DNA of 38,973 nucleotides from an uncultured archaeon (GTDB taxonomy: Archaea > Asgardarchaeota > Lokiarchaeia > Sigyniarchaeales > SOKP01): contig CAZWEM010000047.1 in assembly GCA_964632315.1 (NCBI GenBank), positions 1 to 38,973 of the forward strand, in the 5' to 3' direction. The notes beneath the pieces were generated by a model. The model was given only the letters and a program-made list of their open reading frames with translations. It was not told the origin of the DNA and searched no databases. Shown one piece after another: positions 22,388 to 25,300 of this stretch; the stretch's first letter is position 1; each line of letters starts with the position of its first letter. The translations under genes were made by a program, and so were the position numbers.

Positions 22388-25300
22388 GTGTCAAAAATTT
22401 CATCAGAAGATGAAGGAAGAATAAAGCAAGGAACAATCGCAGGATTTATGCGGAAAAGAACCCAACTTGTAGGGTTTGAGTTCGGCTATTGGAAGCATTC
22501 AGAGATTCAGAGCACCTGAACTCGTGTAAACAATACGTCGCCGAATTCATCGACAATTCGCTAGATGCGATTGAGACTTACCAATGGAAAGAATTGGAAA
22601 AACCAGATTCTAAATATAAATTTTCTTTGGATCAAGAAACGGCTTTAGAAAACCTAACAATTGCACAAGAAGTTGAAGAACCTCATGTAGAGGTTCATGA
22701 ACAAAAGCTGATTGATTTAGAAGTGGATGAATCCGGTGAGATCATTGACAAGGAGGCAATTGAGGCAGAGGAAGAAGTAAAGAGAATAATTCACGACATC
22801 GATGATTTATTAAAGCCGGTAGCTAATTTAGTTGATATTGAACCTATTGTCATCATAAAATTGCGAGAATACGAGCCCCCCTCTATATTAACCTCTGAAT
22901 TAACACAAAAAAATGTAATGAGTTATACGTTTGAAATTTTTGACAACGGAATTGGAATGAATAAGGGAGATCTTCGTAAATTTGGAAAATATTTAGCATC
23001 ATCCAAGAGTCTTGAATTAAAACAAACAAGGGGAAGTCAAGGATTCGGTGCCCCTAGTGCATTTAGTGACGCTCAGAATACAACAGGTAAACCTATAATA
23101 GTTGCTTCTAAGACTGCAGATATAGTTTTTGCCACTGCATCTGAATTTTTTACAACCTCAAAAAATGAAAAACGTTACTTAATTCATCCAACAGAAATTG
23201 ATAGCCCATTCCTTCATGGAACATATATAAAGTTGAATTATTTAAACGTTAAATACGTTCGTGGGTATGTAGATACGTATATTAAAGAAACCGCATTGAT
23301 GAATCCTCATGTTACCTTAATTTTTATTGATCCATATGGAGAGATAGTCACCTATCCAAGGTTAGTTTCTTCATTTCCAAGGGAACCTAAGTATGCTAAA
23401 CCACATCCATCATCTACAAACATCGGAGATTTACAAGATCTGTTGACTAAATCTGAGAATTTAACGGTTTCTGCCTTTTTACAAGATAATTTTGTACGGG
23501 TAAGTTCAAGGACCGCTAAAGAAATAATAACTATTGCTGAAAGAGATCTTCAAGATAAGAATAACCTTCTAATTCTTAAAGAAGGATATATTACAAAATC
23601 AACCAAGAAGAGCGATGAAATTTATTACTGTACTTATGAAAAAAGAGTTTATGGGCGTTCAGAGAAACCTCGCGATAAATTGATTGTATACAAATTAGTA
23701 TCTGAAGAAATAATCAATAAATACTGGGAATTAATAACAACCTACTCTGATTTGAATAAAGAGATTTCAAAAATTGAAGGAGAAATTAAAAAACACTATA
23801 GACGCATTGAAACTGTTGATACAAAGAAAGAAGAAAGAAAAATTGAGAGATCTGTGGATAAATTAATGGAAGAAATTGAAAAGATTAACGAAGAGAAAGA
23901 AAAAGTGAAAATTCAGCTTTCAAATTTGATAGATGAAAGTAAAGATCAATTAGAGGAGCAAAAAAAATTAAAAAATCGAACGGATTACGAGGATTTAATT
24001 AATCAAACTTTAATTTCAAAAGCTAAACCTTCTGAATTAACAAGTGATCAATTCAATTCCTTATTTCAAGCCTTCAAATCAGTAAAATATATGGCCCCAC
24101 CTACTGATACAGCAATTCCCGTTGGAGATACTGTTTTAGAAAATACTTTAATTAAGGAAATAGGTTTAAAAATATCAGATAATTTAGAAGATTTAGATGA
24201 ACCCGTTCCTGAAATTATTACTATGGAAAAAGTCATCGATAAAGAAGTAAGTATAACTGGTGAAGAAAAACCCGATCTGAAAATTTTGAATACGAAAATT
24301 TTAGCTAGTTATGACATCTTAGCTAAACCTGATCAAGAGGATTTTAAACAAATTTTTAGAGATATTATTCGTCTTGATGCTCAAAAGCATTCGCCCAATA
24401 ATTACCGTGATGTTTTTGAATTTTTTTCGGAATATTACGCTAAAGATGATGATTTTGTCTCAGCCGAAACTAGACCTCCTACGAGTGGAAAAGGTTTAGC
24501 TTACATCGTCGAAGCAGCATTAGCATATTGTAATGATCCAAAGAAACTAGATACTCCTAAAAGGTCTAGAGATGTATTATCTCGATTTGTAAATAGAACT
24601 CCTAAATTGAGGGATAGTGCTGATTGTGCAATTACAAAAGCCGTACAATCTGTTAATTGGAAGAATTATAAACTCGATACATTTGATAATAATCTTCCCA
24701 AAGGACCGATTAAACTTTTAGTAAACGTTTCAGGACCTTATGTCCATTTAATGTTCAAATCTCAATCAAAGAATGCGTTAGCAGATGATGAGGAATTAAT
24801 TAAGGAAATAAAATATTGTCTCGAAGCGATAGGAAGGAGATTGAGAGCCTATCTAAATAAAAAAGCAACAATTAGAAAAAGTGAAAAAAGAGCGAGCGTT
24901 ATTGAGAAATATGTACCTGAATTTGTGCAATCTCTTTATAATATCATTTCTACAGGGGATTCTGATTTGAAAGAAAAAATTTCAGTAGAAGAAATGAAAG
25001 AATTAATGATTGATGCGGTAGGAAAGAGAGCTAAACTCCCTATGCCAAAGAAGCTTAAGGCGAAACCTATATCCAAAGATATTGAAGTAAAAGAGATCAA
25101 GAAAGGGGAAACTGAACCTGAAAAATTTACTGAGGTTATAGAAAAAGAGGAATTTTCAGAAAAAGCTCTTCTAAAATGGACTAAAAGTGAACTATTTGAA
25201 TACTGCGAGGATCGAGGAATAGATGTGTCTAAAAATGCTAACAAAACAAAGATTATAAATAAAATATTAGGATCATATTCTAAAGAAGCAGTTATAGAGG

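Follow-up and report, generated by a model that had tools for sequence, protein, structure and literature searches.

How does a Lokiarchaeia archaeon obtain a complete subunit B of topoisomerase VI (Top6B) from a gene whose first codons lie in another frame than the rest? In the window (the whole stretch of DNA analysed, 38,973 nt), which belongs to a draft MAG of Promethearchaeota (Lokiarchaeia; 99.5% complete, 8.6% contaminated), the open reading frame called for this protein (22489-25632, plus strand) starts with TTG at 22489..22491 and lacks the Top6B N-terminus. A Top6B-like N-terminus is encoded upstream, in a frame that begins with GTG at 22388 and ends at a TGA at 22517-19. The preliminary description had reported this arrangement, with coordinates that all proved correct, and had explained it by an mRNA intron of the type cut by the tRNA splicing endonuclease EndA and joined by RtcB. 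According to our analysis, the insert between the two frames is a real and well-supported candidate for such an intron. Several GC-rich, bacterial-looking contigs in this 33% GC genome (C74, C80, C90, C103, C105 and C106) probably represent the 8.6% contamination.

The top6B gene and the fold at its exon junction

The long frame is a topoisomerase VI subunit B, as judged from its match to PRK04184 (315 bits; cut-off 274) and to Topo-VIb_trans, its GHKL and transducer domains, the Glu and Asn of its N-box, and the adjacent top6A. The latter gene is intact (25644..26828, plus strand) and lies 11 nt downstream of top6B, and the two genes are probable members of the same operon. Only a single copy of top6B is present in the genome. 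Upstream of it, a TATA-like box (22342..22349, plus strand) that is conserved in the related scaffold L255 forms a putative promoter. The encoded protein is approximately twice the usual length of Top6B, with an acidic insertion directly after the N-box (window 22590-22900) and a long C-terminal region (window 25000-25632) that shows a faint Ish1/HeH-like match.

Both exons are on the plus strand. Exon 1 (22388..22500, GTG start) encodes residues 1-37 and two bases of the Ser38 codon, covers the N-terminal strap region and matches residues 16-55 of M. mazei Top6B in a profile comparison; an identical version of its N-terminus is encoded contiguously in L255 and the corresponding protein P0005. 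Exon 2 (22530..25632) contains the N-box, encoded from 22531 onward, the rest of the GHKL domain, the transducer and the long C-terminal region. Glu43 of the N-box (22543-45) is aligned to E44 of M. mazei (E 0.006), where the E44A mutant of Top6B is ATPase-deficient (PMC5922973), and Asn47 (22555-57) is likewise encoded by exon 2. Between the exons, a 29-nt insert (22501-22529) splits the codon of Ser38, five residues before Glu43; it shifts the frame and holds the TGA that terminates the frame of exon 1. As had been predicted, excision of these 29 nt generates one Top6B open reading frame of 1071 amino acids. The TTG start of the called frame is a gene-caller artefact of the intron.

The fold proposed earlier for the junction is the structure of minimum free energy (-28.6 kcal/mol, z -2.8; 2 of 200 shuffles are as good), and when it is embedded in 267 nt of sequence the pairs reach probabilities of 0.92-1.0, save for one terminal exon pair at 0.45. 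The two exons form a helix with a 5' arm (22477..22491) made of the codons of E-F-G-Y-W and a 3' arm (22531..22549) made of the codons of Q-Y and A-E-F. In this helix 22477-86 pairs with 22540-49 and 22487-91 with 22531-35, and the 3' arm carries a 4-nt bulge (22536-39). A central helix of 4 bp, placed by fold prediction and by a comparison of 18 copies (see below), joins the exon (22495..22498) to the intron (22524..22527), with all four pairs formed at probabilities of 0.92-0.98. At the 5' site a 3-nt bulge (22499..22501) is closed by the intron-internal helix h', which together with a hairpin with a 5-nt loop occupies 22502..22523. The cut predicted here, after 22500, is set by EndA geometry and by a junction test over the 18 copies. 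At the 3' site, with a cut predicted after 22529, three unpaired nucleotides (22528..22530) lie opposite 22492-94 in a 3x3 internal loop, GAA facing AAA.

Because the 3' cut falls in this internal loop, the motif is of the relaxed BHL/HBh' type and not a strict BHB (hBHBh'), which would require a second 3-nt bulge that faces no unpaired bases. Hence, of the two 3-nt bulges that had been described at the cut sites, the 5' one is a true bulge, while the 3' one is part of the internal loop. The insert shows every sequence-level feature of the relaxed class of EndA introns, with an internal loop that replaces one bulge and a cut register that agrees with a natural intronless allele (see below). 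No Rfam match was found over the site, and at 29 nt the insert does not qualify as a group I or group II intron. No further copy of the intron was found when the rest of the genome was searched. A hairpin of the form YAG-AT(A/C/T)TC-CTR recurs in several top6B introns as well as in introns of unrelated genes, and a raw count gives 29 exact occurrences genome-wide. This recurrence is a hint of either a shared origin or a protein-bound loop.

Same-site inserts and a natural intronless allele

A pattern search detected inserts at the same site in 11 of 135 genomes of the family, distributed over three genera. When metagenomes and protein look-ups are included, 23 distinct sequences are known, with lengths of 29 nt (n = 10), 31 nt (n = 11) and 32 nt (n = 2), none of them divisible by three. 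The other family copies that we examined (n = 75) are contiguous and have no insert, and most homologues encode G-F-E-F-G-Y-W-K-H-x-Q-Y without interruption. The insert was not found in 26 genomes from other families of the class, for which the pattern may miss diverged exons. Two metagenome matches to the pattern (L059 and L064, 16 nt) were rejected as chance matches inside another gene. One family genome (G062) has two matches to the top6B N-terminus, on C91 and C29.

At least 14 Top6B entries in the databases, this one included, have N-termini that are translated intron sequence and are thus systematically mis-annotated; the others include P0003, P0004, P0006, P0022, P0023, P0039-41, P0044, P0045, P0051 and P0054. 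N-termini of this MEAFRDSE-like kind in close orthologues had been named in the preliminary description as evidence that would speak against an intron. They do exist (P0003, P0004 and P0006) but are gene-caller artefacts of the same intron, and the orthologues that have these residues in one continuous frame, named there as well, support the intron rather than refute it.

The fold is kept across 18 copies despite their differing sequences (94.4% of cells paired versus 30-37% in slid controls). Alignment of top6B within the family had been proposed as a check, and besides presence and absence of the insert it reveals two-sided, compensatory changes in 12 cells of the 18 copies, compared with 3.4 in shuffles that ignore relatedness. 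These changes map to all three pairs of the intron helix h' and to one pair of the hairpin. In the central helix, 93% of cells are paired, and its outer pair is mismatched in 5 of the 18 copies. Excision at the EndA register produces W-K-H-[S/T]-Q-Y in every one of the 18. Among ten placements of the deletion, just the offsets 0 and +1 yield, in each of the 18 copies, a residue known from homologues that lack the intron. The EndA position corresponds to offset 0, which the protein sequence alone does not separate from +1.

The product and the boundaries of the predicted splicing are fixed at the DNA level by a natural allele. P0005, a protein of 1071 amino acids that is 91% identical over the region searched, starts with the predicted spliced sequence, and its 18-kb DNA scaffold (L255) reads CAT TCA CAA at the junction, with exactly the 29 bases missing. 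The existence of this relative means that the top6B message almost certainly needs splicing. In the phylogenetic tree L255 is sister to an intron-bearing copy (support 100) within an otherwise intron-bearing clade, and by parsimony it represents a precise loss of the intron at the predicted cut sites. Both exons are evidently under purifying selection, since in intron-bearing pairs exon 1 has a dN/dS of ~0-0.05 and exon 2 one of 0.06-0.13, values like those of intronless pairs.

In part, the exon helix simply follows from the protein sequence, because the codons of Glu-Phe-Gly and Ala-Glu-Phe are near-complementary. We therefore compared the codons of 18 intron bearers with those of 41 intronless copies that share the same EFG..AEF residues. 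The Phe codon is TTC in 17 of 18 bearers versus 2 of 41 intronless copies, the Ala codon is GCC in 14 of 18 versus 3 of 41, and the exon duplex has -14.4 kcal/mol in bearers versus -8.1 kcal/mol in intronless copies. Judged from these codons, the intron bearers have tightened the exon helix at synonymous sites. Seven phylogenetically independent pairs gave 6.4 in the same direction and 0 in the opposite one (median p = 0.03, range 0.016-0.06), a borderline result, and a second definition of the trait gave a median p of 0.06. At synonymous sites, the bearers share extra similarity within the helix but not beyond it, which favours structural selection and disfavours a long co-conversion by homing.

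Moreover, a search for a long co-conversion tract found none, and no endonuclease gene lies upstream, as would be the case for a mobile intron associated with a homing endonuclease; the upstream neighbour is coaBC in 18 of the loci that have enough flank. A reverse transcriptase (RVT_1) was not found in the genome. One marginal match to LAGLIDADG_3 occurs on another contig.

Predicted splicing and alternative explanations

The genome encodes two EndA paralogues and RtcB. One of the paralogues (on C28) possesses the catalytic residues Tyr, His and Lys, and its best PDB match is the A. pernix EndA (E 7.6e-34), in an alignment that spans the Crenarchaea-type specificity loop including its Lys. 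This loop and Lys allow the A. pernix enzyme to cleave BHL motifs in mini-helices (PMC3241643). The other paralogue (on C8) is without the catalytic His and fits the structural subunit of a putative (alpha-beta)2 enzyme; such EndA pairs are common in Asgard genomes. By homology, the host EndA would cut relaxed motifs and RtcB would ligate the ends. The window also carries a gene at 9877-9981 (minus strand) that ARAGORN calls tRNA-Trp. Without a 30-nt non-canonical intron at position 24/25 (9958..9929), it is a regular 75-nt tRNA-Ala(CGC) with G3-U70, and the predicted excision of this intron follows the same register as that of top6B. Since the tRNA-Ala gene requires intron removal, the cell must already splice non-canonical introns of ~30 nt. 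A tRNA-Sec gene, expected for Lokiarchaeia, was seen at C35:2538-2630 (-).

We consider it very probable, on comparative grounds, that the top6B insert is an mRNA intron cut by EndA and joined by RtcB, with the exon helix holding the ends; the central proposal of the preliminary description is strongly supported by the comparative evidence. In this model, top6B would be transcribed as a pre-mRNA, the exons of which zip near codon 38 into a ~15-bp helix of their own codons. The helix would present the intron as a hairpin on the 4-bp helix between the 3-nt bulge and the 3x3 loop. [quoted passage not shown] The spliced mRNA would be translated into the 1071-aa Top6B, and the unspliced one into a dead end of 43 aa. 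Splicing is probably constitutive.

It is also conceivable, although unlikely, that the intron is both spliced and used as a regulated switch that ties the output of Top6 to EndA/RtcB, similar to HAC1/XBP1, as had been suggested at the outset. Such an addition to splicing would agree with the observations that retention always destroys the frame, as none of the 23 lengths is divisible by three, and that the fold and the hairpin with its 5-nt loop are conserved across three genera; a similar role has been proposed for cbf5 (PMC2738675). However, about 90% of the family genomes lack the intron, the gene tree of 97 rows requires at least eight changes of its state, and the topology test rejects monophyly of the intron bearers (p-AU 0.0005). 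Further arguments against a switch are that a relative with 91% identity has lost the intron precisely and that numerous unrelated genes contain similar introns, the set of which varies from genome to genome (see below). Given this patchy distribution, the repeated state changes, the precise loss and the many similar inserts, a tolerated constitutive intron fits better, and the suggested regulatory role is left unsupported. The introns look homologous because they share the hairpin with the 5-nt loop, and hence an old gain with repeated loss is preferred over repeated transfer into the same site. Most likely, the top6B intron is tolerated, near-neutral, old in the family and repeatedly lost, and belongs to a population of ~30-nt mRNA introns spread over the genome; a role as a switch specific to top6B is improbable.

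Translational recoding of an unspliced mRNA, by a programmed frameshift or a ribosome hop with the hairpin as stimulator, is very unlikely. A stable hairpin does lie at the break, and the -1 frame is open from 22480 in this copy, but copies of 29 and 32 nt would need a -1 shift and copies of 31 nt a +1 shift, no copy contains a slippery heptamer or a matching pair of codons for take-off and landing, and in three copies the downstream frame has a stop one codon ahead of the junction. A frameshift would also place ~10 non-conserved residues five positions ahead of the catalytic Glu. Read-through of the TGA as Sec was rejected, as the frame that follows is not Top6B.

Re-initiation at TTG 22489 without splicing, which would yield a Top6B lacking the N-strap, with the 43-aa peptide from upstream as a possible complement, seems just as improbable. 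The called frame retains the N-box Glu and Asn, and gene callers choose such starts; however, a comparable, usable start codon is present in just 7 of the 18 intron-bearing copies, and in three copies an in-frame stop immediately precedes the junction. Furthermore, dN of exon 1 is near 0, the covariation would be left unexplained, and in Asgard Top6B the N-strap is both conserved and functional (PMC9665070). Finally, an assembly artefact or an inactivating insertion (pseudogene), which a contaminated draft MAG might bring to mind, can practically be dismissed, because the identical insert is present in an independently assembled JGI contig (L254), variants of it occur in three relatives at 88-93% identity and 23 diverged versions are known, while purifying selection acts on both exons of the sole top6B copy, next to an intact top6A.

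Short inserts across the genome and their known counterparts

In a census free of any motif, we compared this genome (G000) with 2.39 of the 4.6 Mb of a relative that has an intronless top6B (G066), counting inserts that differ between the two genomes, so that shared introns are invisible. Nine frame-breaking inserts were found in this genome, eight of which measure 29-38 nt. Six of the nine pass a strict helix test (0.17 expected on shuffling), two further ones are hairpins narrowly below it, and none of the 38 frame-keeping inserts passes (0.9 expected). The relative has 14 frame-breaking inserts, 13 of them 29-32 nt in length, of which nine pass (0.58 expected); its frame-keeping inserts pass in 4 of 75 cases (2.3 expected). 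In all, this genome has about eight inserts of this kind and the compared half of the relative about 12; a rough extrapolation gives at least 15 such introns per genome. The notion that introns of this kind are overlooked genome-wide is hence borne out by the inserts in both genomes.

The genes that carry them in this genome were named from motifs. For instance, C16:+66180 (38 nt) lies in what we take to be the gene of a DnaG-like archaeal primase, and C18:+19083 (30 nt) presumably in that of TBP, both on the plus strand. On the minus strand, C41:-26283 (30 nt) would belong to a LeuRS-like gene, C35:-14490 (29 nt) presumably to that of a uS8-like ribosomal protein and C25:-29388 (30 nt) to that of an assumed EF-2-like GTPase. 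C44:-1493 (29 nt) and C44:-1404 (30 nt), also on the minus strand, are both found in one small gene, which we assume to be SCP2-like, and C32:-49145 (30 nt, minus strand) is in a gene without identification. The ~12 BHB-type inserts of the relative (29-32 nt; loci L128-L242) are on its contigs C6, C9 and C10, with two close together on C6; the one at 608331 on the minus strand of C9 is within the N-terminus of a presumably GyrB-like protein, again named from its motif.

All 13 in-frame inserts of 30 nt in the two genomes hold a stop (joint probability ~0.001 on shuffling), and no open insert of 30 or 33 nt was found in the census of either genome, which suggests selection for retained introns to be nulls. 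Eukaryotes counter-select stopless 3n introns, and the stop in every in-frame 30-nt intron observed here echoes that. We regard it as likely that the tRNA splicing machinery is a general mRNA splicing system in this Lokiarchaeia family, with tens of ~30-nt core-gene introns per genome that undergo gain and precise loss, are co-adapted with the codons chosen in their exons and are selected so that retention is always null. If true, a prokaryotic relative of eukaryotes would routinely have introns in its protein genes and manage without a spliceosome. As a natural experiment the top6B locus is unusually complete, with 23 variants, co-adapted exons and an allele of exact loss. Three questions become testable with it, namely the entry and exit of EndA introns in protein genes, the possible role of codon-encoded hairpins as proto-splice sites, and the number of mis-annotated 'frameshifted' or N-truncated Asgard genes in the databases.

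Several known systems resemble the proposed one. HAC1/XBP1 also have a short frame-shifting intron that is removed without the spliceosome, with RtcB-type ligation and base-paired exon ends, as in the top6B model. They are cut by IRE1, a nuclease unrelated to EndA, at two stem-loops under signal control, and the resemblance would be one of analogy only. Non-canonical archaeal tRNA introns, including those of intron-rich Asgard tRNAs (bioRxiv 10.64898/2026.10.13.758758), share with the top6B intron the size class, motif geometry, predicted enzymes and repeated gains, whereas the host RNA of the latter is an mRNA and its exon helix is built of codons. That 2026 preprint covers tRNAs only, and the words 'mRNA' and 'cbf5' occur in it 0 times (bioRxiv 10.64898/2026.10.13.758758). 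No Asgard mRNA intron was found in the literature searched, which comprised papers outside subscription access. The BHB intron of Haloferax HVO_1309, besides cbf5 the other mRNA substrate described in print, is an EndA substrate within an mRNA, as proposed for top6B, but it is 46 nt long, lies in the non-coding 5' UTR, breaks no frame and belongs to another host lineage (PMC7714728).

The closest counterpart is the intron of cbf5 in Desulfurococcales and Sulfolobales (Watanabe 2002; Yoshinari 2006; Yokobori 2009, PMC2738675), which is the sole archaeal coding sequence with confirmed EndA splicing in the same body of literature (PMC7714728, PMC2738675), further coding-sequence cases being predicted only (PMC2738675). 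It is also short (16-44 nt versus 29-32 nt in top6B) and near a catalytic residue, often has a relaxed BHB motif, occurs in hosts with a hetero-oligomeric EndA and shows lineage-specific loss. Phylum and gene differ, and splicing of cbf5 was demonstrated by cDNA and in vitro, whereas that of top6B is predicted from sequence. The comparisons above point to the same chemistry in an Asgard archaeon, on an essential gene of DNA topology whose family is ancestral to TOP6BL, the partner of Spo11. In cbf5, the lone confirmed case, the intron has become fixed throughout the greater part of two orders, while that of top6B is present in ~8% of the family genomes and is one of many per genome. The chemistry is already known and, taken alone, the top6B intron belongs with the cbf5 kind; what is new is its place in a dynamic population of introns that extends over whole genomes of an Asgard family.
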